Of a stretch of 38,675 nucleotides of DNA, positions 5,844 through 35,803 are shown one piece after another (within the stretch, counting starts at the first letter, position 1; every line of letters starts with the position of its first letter). The notes under the pieces were generated by a model. The model saw nothing but the letters and a program-made list of their open reading frames with translations. It did no database searches and was not told where the DNA came from. Source of the stretch: Chloroflexota bacterium (GTDB lineage: Bacteria > Chloroflexota > Anaerolineae > B4-G1 > SLSP01); NCBI GenBank assembly GCA_022707725.1, contig JAKJAB010000002.1:1-38675 (forward strand), given 5' to 3'. The position numbers were made by a program, and so were the translations under genes.

Positions 5844-5913
5844 CAAATGGCAAATGGCGAATAGTGAATCACGAATTACCTGAAGTTCGTGAAGATTCGC
5901 GTAATTCGCGGCT
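5844..5913. repeat. heptamer-word array folding into a long imperfect hairpin (dcd / WD40 intergenic)
   Basis: Read in 7-nt steps: CAAATGG CAAATGG CGAATAG TGAATCA CGAATTA, then inverted ATTCG-containing words. Pairings are GCGAAT(5857-62)/ATTCGC(5904-09), GAAT(5866-69)/ATTC(5895-98) and CACGAA(5870-75)/TTCGTG(5886-91). Confidence 0.75.
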
Positions 5914-5919
5914 AAAACG

Positions 5920-6480
5920 CTACAACCGTGGAAGTACGACGCCCTGCTGACCCTGGTATTTGCCCTTCTTGTCGGCGTAGGAAATTTCACACGGCTCGTC
6001 GCCTTCGAAAAACAACACCTGCGCGATGCCTTCATTGGCGTAGATTTTCGCCGGGAGCGGCGTCGTGTTGCTGATCTCGATGGTGATAAAGCCATGCCAA
6101 CCCGGTTCCAAAGGCGTGAAGTTCGTCACGATGCCGCAGCGCGCGTAAGTCGATTTGCCCAGGACGGCCCCTAGCACGTTGCGCGGCATGCGCATATATT
6201 CGAGGCTGCGGGCCAGGGCGAAGGAGTTGGGCGGGATGATGCAGATGTCGCCCGTGAAATCGACCATCGCGCGTATATCGATGTTCTTGGGATCGACAAC
6301 CGCCAGGTCCCCCACCCCGGAGGTGAAGACCTTGAACTCGTTGGCGACGCGGATGTCGTAGCCATACGAGGACAGGCCATAAGAGATCACGCCGTTGCGC
6401 TTTTGCCCATCGAAAAACGGATCGATCATTTGATGTTCCAACGCCATTTTACGAATCCAGTGGTCAGGTTTGAGTCCCAT
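5920..6480 (-). CDS. dcd: dCTP deaminase
   Basis: 186 aa. MGLKPDHWI...SYGYDIRV...[19 protein letters not shown]...[10 protein letters not shown]...[17 protein letters not shown] matches canonical Dcd over its full length. AAGGAG sits 5 nt upstream of the ATG. Confidence 0.95.
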
Positions 6481-6502
6481 GATAGCTCCTTGGAGATAGA
6501 CG

Positions 6503-6563
6503 GTGGACAGTAGACGGTAGACGGGAGCAAGCCCTGTCTACAGTCTACCGTCTACTGTCTACT
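6503..6563. repeat. inverted heptamer array / strong hairpin between the argS stop and the dcd start
   Basis: GTGGACA GTAGACG GTAGACG GGAGCAA GCCCTGT CTACAGT CTACCGT CTACTGT CTACTAG. Perfect 17-bp inverted repeat GACAGTAGACGGTAGAC (6506-6522) / GTCTACCGTCTACTGTC (6543-6559) with a 20-nt loop. No clear U-tract. Confidence 0.8.
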
Positions 6564-21348: not shown

Positions 21349-21425
21349 GTCAGCAGATTAAGCAGATTTAGCGGATTTCTGCCGGTCAGTTCGAAAAATC
21401 TGCTTTATCTGCTTAATCTGCTGAC
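21349..21425. repeat. 9-mer-word palindrome / hairpin between convergent aminotransferase and rtcB
   Basis: Perfect 19-bp inverted repeat GTCAGCAGATTAAGCAGAT (21349-67) / ATCTGCTTAATCTGCTGAC (21407-25). The left arm is built from 9-nt words (cagcagatt aagcagatt tagcggatt). Probable bidirectional terminator, but the U-tracts are weak. Confidence 0.7.
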
Positions 21426-22921: not shown

Positions 22922-22982
22922 GCACACGGATTCCACGGCTAAAAACAAAAGAAAATCCGCGCGGGCCGTGAAATCCGTGTAC
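22922..22982 (-). other. strong hairpin in the archease-rtcB intergenic spacer
   Basis: GCACACGGATTCCACGGC (22922-39) pairs 16/18 with GCCGTGAAATCCGTGTAC (22965-82) around a 25-nt loop. An extra GTACACGGAT word (22912-21) offers an alternative perfect 10-bp register. Confidence 0.6.
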
Positions 22983-26066: not shown

Positions 26067-26086
26067 TGAGAATACTATTGACAGCC

Positions 26087-26151
26087 GCCCAGAACATGTT
26101 ATGATTGCAGCAGATTTTGCAATCCACCTGTAACATGTTCTGGGCGTTTTT
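26087..26151 (+). terminator. long-loop hairpin plus T-tract at the CaCA-remnant / cpaF junction, overlapping promoter-like hexamers
   Basis: Perfect 15-bp inverted repeat GCCCAGAACATGTTA (26087-101) / TAACATGTTCTGGGC (26131-45) followed by GTTTTT. TTGACA (26078-83), 16-nt spacer, TATGAT (26100-05) overlaps the left arm. Confidence 0.5.
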
Positions 26152-26178
26152 CATCGACGGAAATATGGAGGGGGAACG

Positions 26179-27653: not shown

Positions 27654-27687
27654 AAATCCCCGACGCTTTCCAGCGTCGGGGATTTTT
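27654..27687. terminator. bidirectional intrinsic terminator between convergent cpaF and methyltransferase
   Basis: AAATCCCCGACGC (27654-66), loop TTTCCA, GCGTCGGGGATTT (27673-85), followed by TT. T-rich runs follow the stem on both strands. Confidence 0.8.
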
Positions 27688-27694
27688 CGTGGGA

Positions 27695-28449: not shown

Positions 28450-30540
28450 ATGACGGATGAAGGACTCGACCGGTATTTTTTCAACCCGCAAGGGATCGCC
28501 GTCATCGGTGCGAGCGGCGATCCAACCAAACTGAGCTATGGTACGGTCCATAACCTCATCGCCCACGGCTATCGCGGGCCGATCTACCCCGTCAATCCCA
28601 AAGGTGGCGAAATTCAAGGACTGACGGCCTATCCGAGCATCCTGGACGTACCCGATCCCGTCGAACTGGCGGTGATCATGATTCGCGCCGAAGCCGCGCC
28701 TGAAGCGTTGAGCGCGTGCGGCGAGCGCGGCCTCAAAGCCGTGATCGTCGTCACTGGTGGATTCCGCGAGACGGGGCCGGAAGGCGCGGCGCTAGAAGCC
28801 TCGCTCAAGGACATCGCCGCGCGGTATAGAATGCGCCTGATCGGGCCGAACTGCGTCGGCGTGATGGATTCACATCTGCCGCTCGACACCACGTTCATCA
28901 CGATGATGCCCGAACCGGGCCACATCGCCTTCGTCTCGCACTCCGGCGCGATCTGCGGCGGCTCCATCGATTGGGCGCGCAGCGTCGGCGTGGGGTACAG
29001 CCGCATCGCCAGTCTGGGCAACCAGCTAGACGTAGACATCGCCGATGGCATCCAGATGATGAAGGACGATCCCAACACGCGCGTTATCAGCGTCTATGCC
29101 GAGGGCCTGCCCGATGGGCGGCGTTTCGTGGAGGCAGCGGCGAGCGTCTACCGCAGCAAGCCCGTGGTCATGCTCAAGGCCGGATTGACGACGGCCGGCG
29201 TACAGGCCGTGGCGTCGCACACCGGCGCGCTGGCGGGCAACAATGACGCCTACGTCGCCGCGTGTCACCGCGCGGGCGTGGTGATGGTACACTCGCTCCA
29301 GGAACAGAACGACGTGGCGATGGCCCTGGCGACGCAGCCCCTCCCACGCGGCAATCGTGTGGCTTTGCTCACCAACGCGGGCGGTCCGGCAGCGCTGGCT
29401 GCCGACGCGCTCGACCGGCAGGGCCTGGTGATGGCGCCCATCAGCGCCGCCACGCAGGAACGCCTCAAAGCCGTGACCCCACCCGGAACGCAGTTGGGCA
29501 ATCCCGTCGATATGCTCGGCGGGCCGCGCGCGGGAATGTTCAGCGCGGCGGGCAAAATCCTGCTGGAAGACCCCGACGTGGATATGCTGATGACGATGTT
29601 CGTCCCGCAGGCGATCACGCCGGTGAACGAAGTGGCCCAGGAGATGGTGAAAACCGGGCTTGGCGCGGAAAAGCCTGTCGTCGCCTGCCTTGTCGGCGGG
29701 GAGAGCCTCACCGAAACGATTTATACGCTCAACCGAGGCGGCGTCCCCTTCTACCGCGATCCCAACCGGGCCGGACGCGCGCTCGGCGGGCTGTGGGAAT
29801 ACCGCCAGCTCCGCGAGCGCCCCGACCTCACCCCCACCCCGGTCGCGGGCGTGGGCCGCGCGGCGGCGCAGGCGCTTCTGGATGCGGCGCGGGAGCAGCG
29901 CGGCGCGGGCTTCCTGGATGCGGAGACTTCCGCGCGCGTGGCCGAGGCTTACGGCATCGCCATCCCCTTCTCGGGCCTCGCCGGCAACGTCGAGGAAGCC
30001 GTCGCCCTGGCAGAACAGGCTGGGTATCCGGTCGCGCTCAAGCGCATCGCGGCGGACGTCGTCCACAAAGCGGACGTGGGGGGGCTGGCGGTGGGTTTGC
30101 GCGACGCGGACGCGGTGCGCGCCGCCTTCGAGCGCGTCACCGAGGGCGGGCGGGCGCGCGCGATGGTGCAGCGGATGATCCCCAAAGGCCAGGAGGTCAT
30201 TCTGGGCGCCCGGCGCGACGCGCAGTTTGGGCCGCAGTTGATGTTTGGGATGGGCGGCCTCTACGTCGAAATCTTGCGCGACGTGGCTTTCCGCCTCGCC
30301 CCCATCAGCGCCGAGGATGCGCGGGGGATGATCGCGGAGACCGCTGCCGGGCGCATTATGCGGGGCGTGCGCGGCGAGCCGCCGGGTGACATAGCCGCCG
30401 TCGTCGAGGCGCTACAGCGCGTCGGGCAGCTCGTGGTCGACTTCCCCAACATCGCCGAAATGGACATCAACCCGCTAATCGTCGGGCCAGCCGGCGCAGG
30501 CGTGTGGGCAGTGGATGTGCGGATACGAATCGAAGGGTGA
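28450..30540 (+). CDS. ADP-forming acetyl/acyl-CoA synthetase (fused alpha+beta; CoA-binding + ligase-CoA + ATP-grasp_5)
   Basis: From Met18 (AGGAG RBS): FFNPQGIAVIGAS...YPVNPKGGEI (CoA-binding), GPNCVGV, phosphohistidine segment VASHTGALAGN, and the C-terminal ATP-grasp half YPVALKRIAADVVHKADVGG... Confidence 0.9.
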   Translation: MTDEGLDRYFFNPQGIAVIGASGDPTKLSYGTVHNLIAHGYRGPIYPVNPKGGEIQGLTAYPSILDVPDPVELAVIMIRAEAAPEALSACGERGLKAVIVVTGGFRETGPEGAALEASLKDIAARYRMRLIGPNCVGVMDSHLPLDTTFITMMPEPGHIAFVSHSGAICGGSIDWARSVGVGYSRIASLGNQLDVDIADGIQMMKDDPNTRVISVYAEGLPDGRRFVEAAASVYRSKPVVMLKAGLTTAGVQAVASHTGALAGNNDAYVAACHRAGVVMVHSLQEQNDVAMALATQPLPRGNRVALLTNAGGPAALAADALDRQGLVMAPISAATQERLKAVTPPGTQLGNPVDMLGGPRAGMFSAAGKILLEDPDVDMLMTMFVPQAITPVNEVAQEMVKTGLGAEKPVVACLVGGESLTETIYTLNRGGVPFYRDPNRAGRALGGLWEYRQLRERPDLTPTPVAGVGRAAAQALLDAAREQRGAGFLDAETSARVAEAYGIAIPFSGLAGNVEEAVALAEQAGYPVALKRIAADVVHKADVGGLAVGLRDADAVRAAFERVTEGGRARAMVQRMIPKGQEVILGARRDAQFGPQLMFGMGGLYVEILRDVAFRLAPISAEDARGMIAETAAGRIMRGVRGEPPGDIAAVVEALQRVGQLVVDFPNIAEMDINPLIVGPAGAGVWAVDVRIRIEG

Positions 30541-30648
30541 GTGGCAACATGGAAGCGGGCTTGAACGCCGGTTCTACGTCGCCAGTTGCCGGTTGCTCTT
30601 ACAAGGAGTGTAACCGAACCTGTGGTACAGCCCCGATCATGAAAGCTG

Positions 30649-30697
30649 GCGCCGGATCATAATCCGGCGCTGCGGGGACGGCGGATTGTGATCCGCC
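30649..30697 (+). promoter_or_regulatory. two-hairpin leader motif, copy A (upstream of the SLC13 permease)
   Basis: GCGCCGGAT-CATA-ATCCGGCGC (30649-70) and GGCGGAT-TGTG-ATCCGCC (30680-97). Identical hairpins recur at 34510-34558. Confidence 0.6.
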
Positions 30698-30735
30698 TTA
30701 AGCGTTGAAGTAGAACTATTTCCCGAGGAGGCATA

Positions 30736-32511
30736 ATGACGGTAGAGATAGGCTTACTCCTGGCCATCGTGGCGGCAGCGGTGGTGCTGTTCTCGCTGGA
30801 GAACTTGCCGGTAGACGTCATCGCCCTGGGCATCACGATGACGCTCATCCTCACGGGACTGCTGCCTGCAGAGCAAGCCTTCGCCGGATTTGGCAGCAAC
30901 ACGGTGGTGATGATCTTCGGCTTGCTGGTGATCACCGCTGCGTTGATGAACACCGGCGTGACGGATATGGCCGGGCGCAAGCTGCTGCAAATGGCCGGCG
31001 ACAAACCCAAGCGTTTGCTCGCTATCGTGATGGGTATCCCGGCCATTTCGAGCGCCTTTATCAGCAACACGGCGGCGGCAGCGATGTTCACGCCGTTGAC
31101 GTTGGGGCTGGCGCGGCGGATGAGAATCAGTCCGGCCAAGCTGTTGATGCCGATGGCCTTTGCCACCATCCTCCCCAGTTCGGTCACGCTGATTGCCACG
31201 TCGACCAATATCGTCGTCAGCGACGTTATGACGCACTACGGCATGAAGCCGTTGGGGTTGTTCGAGTTGACCGTGGTGGGGCTGCCCATTGCGATTCTGG
31301 GCATCCTCTATATGCTCACCCTCGGCTACCGTCTGATCCCCGACCGCAGCACCGACGAGGAGCTTTCCACCCCGCTGGGGTTCCGTCCCTATCTGGCCGA
31401 AGTTTTGATTCTCCCCGGCTCGCCTCTGATCGGCAAAACGCTCTCTGAGAGCGGGTTGGGACGCGATATGGACCTGACTGTGCTGCGGGTCGTCCGCAAC
31501 AAAAACCACTATCTCGTCCCCCAGGCCAAGTTGCGCCTGCAAGAAGCCGACGAGCTGTTGGTGGAAGGCCAGCGCTCCCAAATCCTCAAGGTCAAGGACG
31601 CGGCGGGCATCGGCCTCAAGGCTGACATCACGCTGGCCGATCCCCGGTTGCAGGCCGGCGATACGGAACTGGTCGAAGTGATCCTGCTGCCGCAATCGCC
31701 GCTTACCGGGCGCACACTGAAGACGCTTGATTTCCGCGAGCGATATGGTTTGCAAGTACTCGGCATCAACCGTAAAGGACAAGCCATTTTTCGCAAGTTG
31801 AGCGAGACCCGGCTGCGCACCGGTGACCAACTGCTGATTCAAGGGCCGCGCACGAATATCACGGCGTTGGACGAGGACAACTTCCACATCATCGGCGCGG
31901 TGGAGCACCAGCGCCCCAACCGCAAGCGTGCGCCGATCGCCATCGGCATTTTCGTTGCCGTGCTGGCGCTGACGGCGTTCAATGCGCTATCGCTGCCAGT
32001 GTCCGTCATCCTGGGCGCGATTGGCGTCTTTGTCACGCGCTGCATCACGCCCGACGAGGCCTACCGGAACATCTCGTGGAAGGCCATCATCGTCATCGGT
32101 TGTATGCTGGCGATGGGCCGAGCCATGGAATACACCGGCGCGGCGACCTATCTCGCCGACCAGATCGTGTCGCTTACCCGTGGACTGACCAATCCGGTAT
32201 GGCTGTTCACTGCATTCTTCGTGCTGACGATGATTCTGACACAGCCGATGTCGAACCAGGCGGCGGCGGTGTTGGTGCTGCCGATTGCGATCCAGACGGC
32301 GCTGCAACTGGGGCTGAATCCACGCGCATTCGGGGTGATGATCGCCGTCGGCGCAAGCTGCTCTTTCATCACGCCGTTGGAACCGGCCTGCCTGATCGTC
32401 TACGGGCCGGGTGGCTACAAATTTACAGACTTCGTCAAAGTCGGATCGCTGCTCACAGTGCTGGTGTATCTGGTCGCCATCCTGCTGGTGCCGATATTCT
32501 GGCCACTTTGA
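30736..32511 (+). CDS. SLC13/DASS-superfamily anion permease with two central TrkA-C (RCK_C) domains
   Basis: 591 aa with hydrophobic N- and C-terminal halves. Two RCK_C-like inserts (AEVLILPGSPLIGKTL...LLVEGQ; VEVILLPQSPLTGRTL...LLIQGP). Confidence 0.9.
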   Translation: MTVEIGLLLAIVAAAVVLFSLENLPVDVIALGITMTLILTGLLPAEQAFAGFGSNTVVMIFGLLVITAALMNTGVTDMAGRKLLQMAGDKPKRLLAIVMGIPAISSAFISNTAAAAMFTPLTLGLARRMRISPAKLLMPMAFATILPSSVTLIATSTNIVVSDVMTHYGMKPLGLFELTVVGLPIAILGILYMLTLGYRLIPDRSTDEELSTPLGFRPYLAEVLILPGSPLIGKTLSESGLGRDMDLTVLRVVRNKNHYLVPQAKLRLQEADELLVEGQRSQILKVKDAAGIGLKADITLADPRLQAGDTELVEVILLPQSPLTGRTLKTLDFRERYGLQVLGINRKGQAIFRKLSETRLRTGDQLLIQGPRTNITALDEDNFHIIGAVEHQRPNRKRAPIAIGIFVAVLALTAFNALSLPVSVILGAIGVFVTRCITPDEAYRNISWKAIIVIGCMLAMGRAMEYTGAATYLADQIVSLTRGLTNPVWLFTAFFVLTMILTQPMSNQAAAVLVLPIAIQTALQLGLNPRAFGVMIAVGASCSFITPLEPACLIVYGPGGYKFTDFVKVGSLLTVLVYLVAILLVPIFWPL

Positions 32512-32640
32512 CCTTCACGGATTTTTGGTATTACCGCAATAGGAGAAAGAAAAGTAGGGAGGGTTGGGGGTATAGCCACCCCAACTCCAGATTCCCGAGC
32601 AAACTCGTGGTTATTTCCCAGCAGAGGGGGCACAGCATTA

Positions 32641-33966
32641 ATGTATCACTTTCTATCACGCTTGCGTGAGCGCGCGAGTATGCGGATCAAGGCCATGCGC
32701 ATCCGGCTGCGCGGCGCAAACCTGCAAGGCAAGATCGATCACAACATTTGGTATCTTTACGTAGAAGTCTTCTGGGCCGCGATGCTCAGTGCGGCGGCGT
32801 CTTTCAACGCCACGTATGCGGTGCGGCTGGGCGCGTCCAATACGATGATCGGTTGGCTGTCGTCAGTGCCGGCGTTGCTCGCGGTCTTTTTATTGGTGCC
32901 GTCGGCGCGTCTCCTGGAGCGAAAAACACAGCGCGCGCCGTGGATTTGGGGCAGCTTGTTCATCGCCCGGCTCGGCTATGGCCTGATTGCTGTGTTGCCC
33001 TGGCTCGTCGCCAACTATCGCGCTGAAGCCGTGGTCGGCCTGTTGATCGCCATCAGCATTCCAAGCACGTTTTTCGCAGCGGGCTTCAACCCACTGCTGG
33101 CCGATGTGGTACCCGAGCGCGACCGCGCGCGCGTCTTTGCCAACCGCAATATCATTGCCGGCCTCACCATTGCGGTCTTGACTTTTCTTGCCGGCAGATG
33201 GCTGGAGGCTGCTGCAAACATCCGCTGGGCCGCCTTTCCTGCGAATTACCAGGCAGTCTACGTCGTCGGGTTTCTGGGCGCGATGATCAGCCTCGTCTAC
33301 CTGCTCAAAATCAGGGTACCGGAGAGCAAAGTTGTCACGCAGACGTCGAAGCAAAGGGCGTCTTTGGCGCAGCTCAAGACGATGTTTGGGGAAAATCGCG
33401 CTTTCGCGCGGATCATCCTCAACACATTGCTTTTCGGGTTCGGCGAATGGCTGGTCTCGCCGCTGTACATCATTTTCTTCCTGCGTCATCTCCACGCCAC
33501 AGACGGTTGGGTGGGGCTGAACAGCACGTTAGCCAACCTCGGCGTCATCGTCGGCTACGCGCTCTGGCAGAGAATCATCTACCGGTTAGGCGACGCGCGC
33601 ACGCTGCTTATCACCATCCCGCTTTCTGCAAGCTATGCTTTTCTGGTGAGCCTGTTTCCCAACCTGACGGCGATCCTGGTGTGGGGCGTGCTGATCAACA
33701 TCATCAACCCCGGCGTGAACCTCAGCCACTTCAACATCCTGCTCAAGCTCTGTCCCAGCGAACGTCGCGCGAGCTACATCGCCTTCTATTCGACGATCAT
33801 CAATATGGGCGCGTTCATCGGCCCGTTGGTCGGCGTGGCGCTATCCAAGACACTCGACATCCGGCTGCTGCTCATCATCGGCGGCAGTATACGGTTGATC
33901 GGCGCGTTGATGTTCCACGTGTTTCCCATCAAAGTAGCCGACCCAACGAGAGCGGGGGCGGAGTAG
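32641..33966 (+). CDS. MFS transporter
   Basis: 441 aa with ~12 TM segments and an MFS-like loop motif after TM2 (PSARLLERK). The start is uncertain (ATG 32641, or Met14/Met19). Confidence 0.8.
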   Translation: MYHFLSRLRERASMRIKAMRIRLRGANLQGKIDHNIWYLYVEVFWAAMLSAAASFNATYAVRLGASNTMIGWLSSVPALLAVFLLVPSARLLERKTQRAPWIWGSLFIARLGYGLIAVLPWLVANYRAEAVVGLLIAISIPSTFFAAGFNPLLADVVPERDRARVFANRNIIAGLTIAVLTFLAGRWLEAAANIRWAAFPANYQAVYVVGFLGAMISLVYLLKIRVPESKVVTQTSKQRASLAQLKTMFGENRAFARIILNTLLFGFGEWLVSPLYIIFFLRHLHATDGWVGLNSTLANLGVIVGYALWQRIIYRLGDARTLLITIPLSASYAFLVSLFPNLTAILVWGVLINIINPGVNLSHFNILLKLCPSERRASYIAFYSTIINMGAFIGPLVGVALSKTLDIRLLLIIGGSIRLIGALMFHVFPIKVADPTRAGAE

Positions 33967-34006
33967 GGAGTAAGGAGTAAGGAGTAGGAAGTAAGGAGTA
34001 GGAAGA
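33960..34006 (+). repeat. tandem heptamer array GGAGTAR x6 (plus a partial unit) between the MFS stop and the ATL start
   Basis: GGAGTAG GGAGTAA GGAGTAA GGAGTAG GAAGTAA GGAGTAG GAAGA-ATG. The first unit contains the MFS stop codon (33964-66) and the last abuts ATG 34007. Confidence 0.9.
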
Positions 34007-34369
34007 ATGGCAAATTACGCAGCAGAGTTCCAAAATCAAGGATCAAAAACCGAGAATCAGTTCGAGCAAGTGTATGCGCTGGTGAAGGCGATTCCGCGGG
34101 GGAAGGTGGCCGCGTATGGGCAGATTGCGCGATGGCTCGGCTGGCCGCGCGGGGCGCGCACCGTCGGTTGGGCACTGCGCGCACTGCACACGGACGAGGT
34201 TCCCTGGTATCGCGTGGTCAACGCGCAAGGGCGCGTGAGCTTACGGGATGACGGTGGCTTGCAACGGGCGCTGCTGGAAGCGGAAGGCGTCGTCTTCGAT
34301 ACTGCCGGGCGGATCGATCTGAAGGTCTACGGCTGGACCGGGCCAGTTATTCCGTGGGGTGAGGAATAG
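34007..34369 (+). CDS. alkyltransferase-like protein (ATL; MGMT DNA-binding domain without the acceptor cysteine)
   Basis: VYALVKAIPRGKVAAYGQIA (HTH) followed by VPWYRVVNAQGRVS. The MGMT PCHRV active site has Trp in place of Cys, as in the ATL proteins (YbaZ/Atl1) as I recall them. Confidence 0.8.
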   Translation: MANYAAEFQNQGSKTENQFEQVYALVKAIPRGKVAAYGQIARWLGWPRGARTVGWALRALHTDEVPWYRVVNAQGRVSLRDDGGLQRALLEAEGVVFDTAGRIDLKVYGWTGPVIPWGEE

Positions 34370-34446
34370 GAAATGGGAAATGGGAAATGGCAAATGGTGA
34401 ATGGCAAATGGTGAATGGCAAATGGTGAATGGTGAATGGCAAATGG
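34363..34446 (+). repeat. tandem heptamer array NRAATGG x12 immediately after the ATL stop
   Basis: GGAATAG GAAATGG x3 CAAATGG TGAATGG CAAATGG TGAATGG CAAATGG TGAATGG TGAATGG CAAATGG. Higher-order 14-mer (CAAATGGTGAATGG) x3 at 34391-34432. Confidence 0.95.
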
Positions 34447-34456
34447 CAAAAGAAAG

Positions 34457-34485
34457 TTGACGTTTTAGCCAGTTTGCTCTATGAT
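34457..34485 (+). promoter_or_regulatory. sigma70-like promoter driving the 34.5-kb non-coding leader
   Basis: TTGACG (34457-62), 17-nt spacer, TATGAT (34480-85). Confidence 0.5.
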
Positions 34486-34509
34486 TGAAAATGCATCCAC
34501 AAAATGCTT

Positions 34510-34558
34510 GCGCCGGATCATAATCCGGCGCTGCAAGGATGGCGGATTGTGATCCGCC
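34510..34558 (+). promoter_or_regulatory. two-hairpin leader motif, copy B
   Basis: GCGCCGGAT-CATA-ATCCGGCGC (34510-31) and GGCGGAT-TGTG-ATCCGCC (34541-58). Both hairpins are identical to copy A, and similarity continues to an AAGGAG-ATG at 34586-34599. Confidence 0.6.
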
Positions 34559-34585
34559 TTAAGTGTTGAAATAGGATAATTTACC

Positions 34586-34713
34586 AAGGAGTTTCCATGT
34601 GGAACTCCACACCAACGAGGACGAAAATAAAACTTTCCGTGTATTCTGTGTATTCCGTGGTTTATTTTCGAAGGAGTCTCCATGTGGGATTCCACACCAA
34701 CGAGTGACGAAAA
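34586..34713 (+). repeat. direct duplication of a ~42-nt SD-ATG module
   Basis: Unit 1 (34586-34627) is AAGGAGTTTCCATGTGGAACTCCACACCAACGAGGACGAAAA. Unit 2 (34671-34713) is AAGGAGTCTCCATGTGGGATTCCACACCAACGAGTGACGAAAA. Identity is ~90% with a 1-nt indel. Confidence 0.85.
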
Positions 34714-34719
34714 GGATTT

Positions 34720-34790
34720 CCTCAACGGATTCAACGGAATCTAACGGATATTTTTCCGTTTAATCCGTTCGATCCGTTGAGGCCATTTTT
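34720..34790 (+). terminator. 9-mer-word hairpin plus T-tract directly upstream of the epimerase RBS
   Basis: Left arm words are ctcaacggat tcaacggaa tctaacgga; inverted words are tccgttt aatccgttc gatccgttgag. This gives a ~27-bp imperfect stem (34720-34782) followed by CCATTTTT, then AAGGAGG and GTG 34803. Confidence 0.65.
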
Positions 34791-34802
34791 AAGGAGGGCC
34801 TT

Positions 34803-35729
34803 GTGCGAATTTTGGTCACGGGTGGGGCAGGTTTTCTGGGGAGCGCGCTGGCGAATGCTTTAGCGCGCCAGGGCCACGAAGTGTTGGTATTGGACGATCT
34901 CAGCGCCGGGGATCAAACGCGGCTGGATGCGAAGGTGTTTTTTCATCGCGGGGAGATCACCAACCGGCCCAAGCTCTGGACGCTCTTGCAGGGCGTGCAG
35001 TGCGTCTATCATCTCGCCGCGCGCGTACTGGTGGCGGAATCGATCCTCTATCCGCGCGAATACAACGACGTGAACGTCGGCGGCACCGTCGCGCTGTTGG
35101 AGGCGATGCGCGACGTGGGTGTCCCGCGTCTGGTCTTCACTTCGTCGGGCGCGGTCTACGGAGCGCAGGAAACGCAGCCGGTGTCCGAAACGACCACGCC
35201 CAACCCACAATCCCCCTACGCGGTGAGCAAACTCGCGGCGGAATACTACGTCCACACGATTGGCGCGCTCTGGGGGACGACGACCGTGGCCTTGCGGATC
35301 TTCAACGCTTACGGCCCAGGACAGCCATTGCTGCCTTCGCACTCACCGGTCGTTTCGCGGTTCATCTACCAGGCGTTGGGCGGCGGCTCGCTGGTGATCT
35401 TCGGCAGCGGCGAGCAGACGCGCGATTTCGTCTACGTCGATGACGTGGTGCGCGCGCTCGTCGCCGCAGCGACCGCGCCCGACGTTGCCCGCCGCACGAT
35501 CAACGTTGGCAGCGGCGAGGACACCGCGATCCAAATGCTGGCCCAACACGTGCTCACCCTGACCGGCTCTTCCAGCAACATCATCAACAGCCCGGTGGAG
35601 AGCGGCGGCGTGACCCGCCTGCGCGCCGATGTGCGTCTGGCGCGCCAAATTCTGGGCTACGAACCCAAAGTCACATTGCAGGAGGGCCTGCGGCGCACAC
35701 TAGCCGAAGACCCACGTTTCCAAAAGTAG
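34803..35729 (+). CDS. NAD-dependent epimerase/dehydratase (extended SDR, UDP-glucose 4-epimerase-like)
   Basis: ILVTGGAGFLGSAL (Rossmann), SSGAVYG and YAVSKLAAE (YxxxK). GTG start with AAGGAGG 5 nt upstream. Confidence 0.9.
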   Translation: MRILVTGGAGFLGSALANALARQGHEVLVLDDLSAGDQTRLDAKVFFHRGEITNRPKLWTLLQGVQCVYHLAARVLVAESILYPREYNDVNVGGTVALLEAMRDVGVPRLVFTSSGAVYGAQETQPVSETTTPNPQSPYAVSKLAAEYYVHTIGALWGTTTVALRIFNAYGPGQPLLPSHSPVVSRFIYQALGGGSLVIFGSGEQTRDFVYVDDVVRALVAAATAPDVARRTINVGSGEDTAIQMLAQHVLTLTGSSSNIINSPVESGGVTRLRADVRLARQILGYEPKVTLQEGLRRTLAEDPRFQK

Positions 35730-35803
35730 CGAGTCAAGAGTAGCGAGTAGCGAACTATGAATCTTGCAACTCTTGACTCATAACTCGCAACTCTTAAGTC
35801 AAG
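35726..35803. repeat. inverted heptamer array / alternative hairpins between epimerase and ssnA
   Basis: GTAGCGA GTCAAGA GTAGCGA GTAGCGA ... AACTCTT GACTCAT AACTCGC AACTCTT AAGTCAA. GAGTCAAGAGT (35731-41) pairs with ACTCTTGACTC (35769-79). CTTGACT (35773-79) can alternatively pair with AGTCAAG (35797-803), which abuts the GGGAGG RBS. Confidence 0.8.

Follow-up and report, generated by a model that had tools for sequence, protein, structure and literature searches.

Dispersed modular repeats appear to fill messenger RNA leaders in some Anaerolineae, including a probable rpiA leader that stands before an epimerase gene

The DNA analysed here, which we call the window, is a stretch of 38,675 nucleotides (nt) of contig JAKJAB010000002.1 from a Chloroflexota bacterium of the Anaerolineae. 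It is ordinary Anaerolineae chromosome. Our subject is a gene-free region of 356 nt (34447-34802) between a gene for an MGMT-like protein and a gene for an NAD-dependent epimerase. On the 5' side lie genes for an acyl-CoA ligase-like protein, a CitMHS/TrkA-C transporter, an MFS transporter and the MGMT-like protein, which is a 120-aa DNA-binding protein. On the 3' side the epimerase gene is followed by an amidohydrolase gene, trmD and an ECF sigma factor gene. The original prediction, made from this sequence alone, described a promoter, a conserved leader, a duplicated module and a terminator before the epimerase. A direct reading of positions 34200-35000 recovers every sequence feature that it listed, each at its coordinates. 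We find that these features probably are the promoter and leader of another gene, rpiA, and that the leader is built from a family of dispersed repeats.

The region opens behind a heptamer simple-sequence repeat (SSR), AAATGGY in about 11 copies (34371-34450; found with Tandem Repeats Finder, TRF, and in a repeat-family search). The array lies between the stop codon of the MGMT-like gene and the -35 hexamer, and ends 6 nt 5' of that hexamer. On the plus strand there follow a sigma-70-type promoter, TTGACG-17-TATGAT (34457-34485; 10 of 12 consensus matches in a promoter scan), and copy B of a two-hairpin repeat element (34503-34585). The two small hairpins of the element (34510-34531 and 34541-34558) are perfect, and an A/T-rich tract ends its tail. 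It folds at -32.3 kcal/mol (z -5.0 against shuffled sequence). That this leader is a repeat had been predicted and holds: copy B (34503-34591) and copy A (30642-30730) are 87% identical. Copy A stands before the CitMHS/TrkA-C transporter gene, in a related unit (30603-30735, plus strand) that runs AAGGAG, a box of the type we call T4, the two-hairpin element and TATTTCCCGAGGAG.

Behind copy B stand two copies of a box that we call T1, the duplicated module of the original prediction, both on the plus strand and both recovered by repeat search and nhmmer. Copy 1 (34586-34628) reads AAGGAG-TTTCC-ATG-TGGAACTCCACACCAACGAGGACGAAAAT (E = 7e-14) and copy 2 (34671-34713) reads AAGGAG-TCTCC-ATG-TGGGATTCCACACCAACGAGTGACGAAAA. 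Their AAGGAG/ATG pairs begin at 34586/34597 and 34671/34682. The duplication is present, but its identity is 85% over 46 nt and not about 90%. The AAGGAG sequences lie 217 and 132 nt 5' of the start of the gene and are not the ribosome-binding site (RBS) of the main open reading frame (ORF). Between the boxes an array of 2.8 copies of the word TTCYGTGTA (34629-34670, plus strand; TRF) lies between an A-tract and TTTATTTTC. An AT-rich hairpin proposed for this interval (CGAAAATAAAAC/GGTTTATTTTCG) gains nothing in stability over shuffled sequence (-9.8 kcal/mol, z -1.0).

The last element is a long imperfect hairpin of 9-nt words (34714-34790, plus strand), in which TCAACGGAT occurs three times together with its complement, followed by CCA and TTTTT. 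Its arms lie at 34720-34748 and 34755-34782 and its T-tract at 34786-34790. This 9-mer hairpin is as real as had been thought (-39.3 kcal/mol, z -6.7 against shuffled sequence), and so are the tandem words, which TRF reports as 9-nt repeats at 34635-34659, 34722-34749 and 34755-34778. The RBS of the epimerase, AAGGAGG (34791-34797), and its GTG start at 34803 follow directly (34791-34805, plus strand). This stretch is identical in L001-L009 (L numbers denote the contigs and loci compared).

The match of the promoter to the consensus is by itself not above chance (2 found against 1.9 expected in a 6-kb region). We take the promoter to be real because it is conserved across species, not because of its consensus score. 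Nine related metagenomic contigs carry TTGAC[GC]-N17-TATGAT before rpiA, with hexamers and spacer length kept in L029, L031, L032, L035, L036 and L037-L039 and a variant in L034, while the remaining spacer diverges. The original prediction was thus right about a near-consensus promoter and wrong about its gene: by this conservation, TTGACG-17-TATGAT at 34457-34485 is the promoter of rpiA and not of the epimerase.

The gene order says the same. The MGMT-like gene, the leader and rpiA follow one another in the conspecific contigs L010-L014 and in L028. Five conspecific contigs and 11 from relatives have the order MGMT to rpiA. When metagenomes were scanned with the MGMT-like protein, 12 loci had rpiA directly after MGMT (identity 72-100%). 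An MFS gene lies 5' of MGMT wherever the contig extends that far, and the epimerase is present at none of the 12 loci. Contigs with the same MGMT run through the heptamer repeat, the promoter, leader B, modules 1 and 2, the 9-mer hairpin and one more unit into rpiA. This third unit is of type T2 in L010-L012 and of type T4 in L013 and L014.

In the nine relatives the MGMT-rpiA spacers are short (82-190 nt). Their rpiA leaders are 35-110 nt long, about 35 nt in L037-L039, and leader B, the T1 box and the 9-mer hairpin are all absent from these spacers. Hence the modules, 350-450 nt in all, represent a lineage-specific enlargement of the rpiA 5' untranslated region (UTR). Compared with the window, L013 and L014, the heptamer array before the promoter is shorter by 14 nt in L012 and by 28 nt in L010, and similar repeats precede the same promoter in the related species L034 and L036. 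As a side observation, (AAATGGY)n might adjust the strength of the promoter, as contingency-type SSRs do.

The epimerase has its own native surroundings. Conspecific contigs with an identical epimerase have hflX, not MGMT, upstream (L001-L003). In the sister species L108, L109 and L111/112 the epimerase (87-90% identity) also adjoins hflX, in the order ftsJ, hflX, (FemAB), epimerase, amidohydrolase, trmD, sigma factor. A promoter-like TTAGAA-17-TAAAAT is conserved beside hflX at the epimerase loci of the sister species. MGMT adjoining the epimerase was not found in any public contig examined, so this placement is unique to the window. The region is therefore not the epimerase's own upstream control, as the original prediction had it; the native neighbours are MGMT with rpiA and hflX with the epimerase. 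Two smaller changes are seen at this locus. A gene of the FemAB family stands between hflX and the epimerase in two sister species and has been lost in the species of the window (L002:9683-10000 against L108 and L111). The species of the window retains the shared TTAGAA-17-TAAAAT, and a T1 unit now fills the space before its epimerase.

The point at which the two loci meet can be located. Short-read contigs break inside the 9-mer hairpin, 49 nt 5' of the epimerase. The rpiA-type and epimerase-type copies of the repeat differ at 4 positions in about 120 nt, and the window has the rpiA-locus base at all four (34711, 34720, 34744 and 34771). From 34790 on, the window equals the epimerase-locus sequence. 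Hence the alignment places the switch of alleles within the 18 identical bases 34772-34789. Both parental junctions are represented by strain-matched contigs. To the left, some 1.0-1.2 kb of L013 and L014 agree with the window apart from at most one mismatch and one gap; to the right, L008 is identical save for 3 single-nucleotide polymorphisms (SNPs) in the hairpin. The leader stands before the epimerase because rpiA and the epimerase carry the same T1 repeat of about 120 nt. The sequences point to either homologous recombination mediated by the repeat or an assembly mis-join through a collapsed, near-identical repeat, and the mis-join seems more likely. SNP density against other strains (0.6-0.8%) is similar on both sides of the junction, so strain chimerism is uninformative as a test of mis-assembly. 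With rather more confidence than doubt, we read the 356 nt as the rpiA promoter followed by the first 300 nt or so of a species-specific, repeat-built rpiA 5' leader.

The modules of this leader are not confined to it. From a comparison of all copies, the common unit runs, in order, AAGGAG, a box of about 30 nt, GAAAAU, an array or hairpin of 7-9-nt words, (U)AUUUUC and nAAGGAG. T1 is one of four box types: T2 and T3 are its recognisable relatives, and T4 is the box before leader copy A. A leader contains one to five such units in a chain, whose last AAGGAG is the RBS of the gene. The junction ATTTTC-nAAGGAG recurs both 5' of boxes and 5' of start codons. Within leaders AAGGAG appears every 85-120 nt. 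The two-hairpin element takes the hairpin slot of a T4 unit. It lies 5' of a T1 box elsewhere too, shortened in L018 and in full in L020, where a complete T4 box, the two-hairpin element and a T1 box precede an unrelated gene. The T4 box is also found in the rpiA leader of L013/L014 and in the leader of an S8-peptidase gene.

The roughly 65 kb examined from this species carry five T1 boxes, spread over three loci, and also T2 and T4 boxes and two copies of the two-hairpin element. Species-representative genomes, when scanned, added 13 T1 copies in eight other metagenome-assembled genome (MAG) species of Anaerolineae/Chloroflexota. The expectation that module and leader recur in other genomes was thus borne out, and the region is a 5' leader rather than junk confined to one spot. 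All T1 copies were retrieved with an exact 21-nt module pattern, so invariance inside that pattern is forced. A search of all fetched DNA (about 0.75 Mb) with nhmmer for more diverged T1 copies returned only the T2 and T3 relatives in L015. Between the loci of the other MAGs and this species, similarity at the nucleotide level is limited to the repeat modules. In 89.8 kb of sister-species DNA, which includes both orthologous leaders, there are 0 T1 copies. Hence the elements are not conserved regulators of these genes.

Single modules recur at other loci as well. The word array TTCYGTGTA stands before other genes in L012, L021 and L025, and the 9-mer hairpin has copies at three conspecific loci (rpiA, epimerase and S8 peptidase). 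The longest chain is a 560-nt leader (L012:17800-18450) before a gene for a 2214-aa S8-peptidase/metallophosphatase. It has a strong promoter, TTGACA-17-TAATAT, and then five units with T4, T1, T1, T2 and a heptamer hairpin; the second unit contains a copy identical to the 9-mer hairpin of the window. The T2 box (L012:10767-10785 and L012:18270-18290) has CTGGCGCAC(A/T)CCATGCA, which agrees with a sigma-54 -24/-12 promoter (TGGCAC-N5-TTGCA) in spacing and in most bases. A T2 variant in L015 is without the -12 GC, and the likeness is probably a coincidence.

T1 is sense-oriented and immediately 5' of a gene at 14 of 16 independent loci, a bias with a one-sided binomial probability of about 0.002 against an expectation of 50%. 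At one of the two exceptions (L023:3205-3440), a 26-codon ORF and a GC-rich hairpin come after the T1 unit, with minus-strand genes on either side; at the other (L026:1157-1199), an ACG-variant T1 box on the minus strand is directed at the 3' end of a MerR-like gene. The genes downstream encode GyrI-like, baseplate-J-like, Ldh, GH5, adenylyltransferase, GH127 and GT4 proteins, rpiA, the epimerase, the S8 peptidase and an SLC13-type transporter. These are unrelated functions, and therefore a metabolite-specific switch is excluded.

The units thus have what small interspersed modular repeats have, namely dispersal, mosaicism with variation between strains and a patchy distribution. Several known origins were considered and set aside. 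Neither the T1 box nor the two-hairpin element occurs in IMG/VR, which argues against a phage origin. A MITE (miniature inverted-repeat transposable element) with AAGGAG as target duplication is contradicted by the left flanks of single units, which are GAAG, GAAGAG or ACAAG (L017, L021, L023 and L025). The sole inverted flanks of units are the A-tract (GAAAAU) and the U-tract (AUUUUC), and in chains of several units AAGGAG stands at either end of a unit. The orthologous leaders are too diverged to define insertion ends, no alignment gave a clean empty site, and the roughly 65 kb of this species contained no transposase. A known RNA family or riboswitch was rejected as well: Rfam gave no matches at gathering score for the window and six related loci, and chance-level matches only at E up to 10 for 30400-35000. 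We found no description of such elements in the searchable literature on intergenic repeats of Anaerolineae and Chloroflexi, on STRR repeats, or on MITE and REP elements. Together this appears to be an undescribed family of dispersed modular repeats that fills mRNA leaders in some Anaerolineae.

Structure is common in the units but not universal. Among the 18 distinct segments that follow a T1 box, 11 contain a strong hairpin (z <= -2.4, ten of them <= -3.2). Between the rpiA-type and epimerase-type 9-mer hairpins all 4 substitutions keep the pairing (A-U to G·U twice, C-G to U·G, U·G to U-A), and on this comparison the 9-mer hairpin is under structural constraint. Its U-tract begins only 3 nt past the stem, with CCA before UUUUU, and a terminator scan does not call it. 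In other units the stem runs directly into the U-tract, as in the S8 unit of L012 (UUAUUUUC) and in L019, L023 and L024 (GCGG, then UUUAUUUUC). Leaky termination at the 9-mer hairpin may occur. For T1 itself, a hairpin (P1) that would sequester the Shine-Dalgarno (SD) sequence is paired in 96.7% of cells, and the pairs of an alternative 5-bp hairpin (UGUGG/CCACA) are invariant. A fold shared by box types T1-T4 was not found. Nor did the leaders contain internal promoters beyond the rpiA promoter and a weak match, TCCACA-17-CATAAT.

The short ORFs (sORFs) that the T1 boxes open belong to the boxes rather than to peptides. In the window they are sORF1 (34597-34707, TGA at 34705-34707) and sORF2 (34682-34744, TAA at 34742-34744), both on the plus strand. 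They translate with similar N-termini as had been claimed, but they are not conserved genes. Across 19 distinct copies the start codon is ATG in 15, ACG in 2, AGG in 1 and AAG in 1; the ATG of box copy 2 is AAG at the same site in L010, L011, L012 and L028. The ORFs range from 14 to 126 codons with unrelated tails, and the only common peptide is MW[DN]STPT, which is fixed by the nucleotide box. T1 and T3 keep CCACAYCAACG in different reading frames. The lost start codons, the unrelated tails and the differing frames show that conservation is at the nucleotide level and that the sORFs are by-products; a conserved peptide is ruled out on the same three grounds. Gene callers are drawn to these repeats in other ways. 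In L002 and L003 a 45-aa ORF is called that crosses the T1 box in a different frame, and on the minus strand of the window an 89-codon ORF with a TTG start (34465-34734) is composed wholly of repeat modules and is almost certainly spurious.

To explain the units, we favour generic cis-acting leader modules that are co-transcribed with the downstream gene and are neither a dedicated epimerase switch nor a peptide gene, and we consider this moderately probable. In such a scheme the units would be transcribed together with the gene behind them. Their long hairpins and U-tracts would act as leaky terminators or as roadblocks to ribonucleases. The internal SD-like sites, some with an incidental AUG, might be decoy or stand-by sites for ribosomes in the manner of STAB-SD. 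Taken together, the units would tune how strongly the gene is expressed or how stable its mRNA is, with no signal sensed.

Several points weigh against this explanation. We infer every step, from transcription across the units to termination, processing and stabilisation. Significant hairpins are missing from 7 of the 18 distinct post-T1 segments, including the first unit of the window, and therefore no single structural mechanism can account for every unit. Shuffled sequence folds as well as the boxes do, and the covariation of the SD-sequestering hairpin is not significant, since 122 of 500 shuffles reach the observed value. A purely generic role also leaves the near-identity of T1 across species unexplained. 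This near-identity hints at a trans-acting partner, although the exact 21-nt retrieval pattern partly forces this identity.

Alternatively, the units may be purely selfish or neutral interspersed repeats, MITE-, REPIN- or BOX-like, for which the leader is simply a tolerated insertion site. We hold this to be unlikely, though by no means far-fetched. The repeats are abundant in this species and absent from the orthologous sites of sister species, units are swapped and copy number changes between strains, the downstream genes share no functional theme, and degenerate copies without hairpin or ATG occur. By the same logic BOX, RUP and SPRITE in pneumococcus were argued to be parasitic (PMC3049150). 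However, tolerated insertion does not predict that 14 of 16 loci are sense and directly 5' of a gene with none between convergent genes, or that every unit ends in a functional-looking RBS context. Furthermore, a transposase was not found in the window, and the left flanks differ too much to form a consistent target-site duplication.

A more specific proposal is that the T1 box of about 35 nt is the recognition site of a trans-acting factor, in a copy-and-paste attenuation or antitermination cassette that occurs singly or in chains of up to five. We would give it only a small chance. A protein or RNA specific to the clade, for example an antiterminator, an RNA chaperone or a ribonuclease, would bind the box and control read-through or decay at the hairpin of many unrelated genes, and for this full version, a portable cassette, we see a slim chance at best. 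Its appeal lies in the box itself, which is near-identical in at least 9 species while its flanks vary, is strictly sense-oriented in leaders and always stands directly 5' of an A-tract, a hairpin and a U-tract; several box types share CACAYCA-NCG...GAAAAU. Yet the conservation of the box is inflated by the exact-pattern search, its structure and covariation are not significant, its absence from sister species speaks against an essential conserved regulon, and there is no candidate factor. If true, the T1 cassette would be a general-purpose leader control system of a previously undescribed kind.

The original prediction had suggested a translation-coupled attenuator, in which ribosomes on the T1 ORF would melt the next terminator and allow read-through. 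We now consider this improbable. In 15 of the 19 distinct boxes the ATG stands 5 nt behind AAGGAG, which makes a good initiation site; the T2 and T3 boxes have GTG or ATG at the equivalent position, and the TAA of sORF2 (34742-34744) does lie within the left arm of the -39 kcal/mol 9-mer hairpin, as predicted, with a U-tract behind it. Known leader-peptide attenuators (trp, his, erm, cat) likewise have a short ORF with a good SD before a hairpin and U-tract. They differ in other respects: here start codon, peptide and stop position are not conserved, no antiterminator pairing was seen, and the genes are unrelated. The start is ACG, AGG or AAG in 4 of 19 boxes, and the AAG allele occurs at the conspecific locus of rpiA, a core metabolic gene. 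The stop has no fixed place relative to the hairpin: it falls in the left arm, in the loop, in the right arm or past the next SD. In the T4 box, no start codon stands at a distance suited to initiation. A stable hairpin is missing in 7 of 18 units, including the one after sORF1. We searched for an alternative antiterminator pairing and found none. Finally, the U-tract starts 3 nt past the stem, and the terminator scan makes no call.

The last suggestion, an independent small-RNA or small-peptide locus from the promoter at 34457 to the 9-mer hairpin, can claim the order of promoter, structured RNA and hairpin with T-tract in the window, and the T1 copies of L023 (with its 26-codon ORF and hairpin) and L026 that have no co-oriented downstream gene, but it is highly improbable, as the promoter is that of rpiA and in sister species drives rpiA directly through a 35-110-nt leader, so that transcription from it must reach rpiA, and as the peptides are not conserved and Rfam has no match.

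Generic leader modules of this type resemble several known systems. We consider the units a new family of the same general kind as the BOX and BIME repeats, likened by kind and not by alignment with the reference sequences. It shows no homology to any of the families that we tested. What sets it apart from known families is the sense orientation in leaders, the SD-containing junctions and the hairpins of tandem words.

Parallels come from leaders and dispersed elements in other bacteria. In the cryIIIA leader of Bacillus thuringiensis, the SD-like STAB-SD site in a long 5' UTR could hold a 30S subunit and so protect the mRNA downstream. The units share with it SD-like sites in the 5' UTR far from the real start, but STAB-SD is a single site and not a repeated, dispersed module. 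Correia elements of Neisseria and ERIC elements are short dispersed repeats near gene starts, co-transcribed, with long hairpins that can alter mRNA processing and expression. Correia elements have 26-bp terminal inverted repeats and a TA target duplication, whereas we found no consistent terminal inverted repeat or target-site duplication here. The STRR sequences of filamentous cyanobacteria are tandemly amplified intergenic heptamers, like (AAATGGY)n, (GGAGTAA)n and (GTAGACN)n here. They differ in sequence and phylum, and the words here often form inverted arrays that fold into hairpins and are combined with conserved boxes and SD junctions. For the BIME and REP elements of enterobacteria, roles in mRNA stabilisation and termination have been proposed. 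Like these and REPIN/RAYT systems, the units lie in transcribed intergenic DNA and are mosaics of palindromes with short conserved linkers, and the two-hairpin element resembles a pair of REP-like palindromes. REPs are palindromes of 20-40 nt that bear GTAG or CGTC tags and are typically found at 3' ends or between cistrons (PMC3733652). On direct reading, the two hairpins here are without a GTAG or CGTC tag, and hairpins in the units reach about 30 bp and are made of tandem 7-9-nt words. A RAYT gene was not seen in the sampled DNA.

BOX (boxA-boxB(n)-boxC), RUP and SPRITE of Streptococcus pneumoniae are also small modular repeats with few box types and a module number that varies between strains (PMC3049150). 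They abound in one species and are scarce or missing in its close relatives, can create spurious ORFs, are co-transcribed with their neighbours, as we infer for T1 units, and are rich in secondary structure (PMC3049150). However, they are enriched between convergent genes (PMC3049150), whereas T1 units are sense and 5' of genes (14 of 16), and every T1 unit ends in an SD-like AAGGAG that is usable as the RBS of a gene.

Word repeats occur elsewhere in the window as well. Hairpins or arrays of words lie in most intergenic regions (6497-6563, 21349-21425, 22924-22980, 35721-35790 and 5870-5920), with the words GTAGACN, AGCAGATTT, ACACGGATT, AGTAGCG/AGTCAAG and CGCGAAT. The hairpin AGCAGATT between the convergent aminotransferase and RtcB genes has a copy of 97% identity in another species (L018:1171-1201) and occurs at L001:8283-8315 too. 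Hence word hairpins are dispersed repeats in their own right. At 33960-34005 an SD-like GGAGTAA is repeated about 6 times, overlapping the MFS stop codon and running into the start codon of the MGMT-like gene; these are tandem potential ribosome-binding sites. At 26079-26153 a 23-bp inverted repeat is followed by TTTTT, and its left arm overlaps TTGACA-16-TATGAT before a gene for a T2SSE-type ATPase; it would be a terminator of read-through from upstream that overlaps the next promoter. Between convergent genes at 27654-27690 there is a canonical, bidirectional-looking intrinsic terminator, AAATCCCCGACGCT-ttcc-AGCGTCGGGGATTTTT. Thus the organism also uses ordinary GC-rich terminators beside word hairpins.

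A plausible layout of promoter, leader, sORFs and terminator before an epimerase is here the promoter of another gene followed by dispersed repeats. Such repeats cause breaks and wrong joins in metagenome assemblies and give rise to spurious small ORFs. Some uncultured Anaerolineae, abundant as they are in wastewater systems, assemble long leaders from conserved boxes, arrays of 7-9-nt words and SD junctions. The sense bias and the cross-species identity of the box separate T1 units from classical parasitic repeats, and therefore make them a candidate for a generic, portable module that tunes gene expression.

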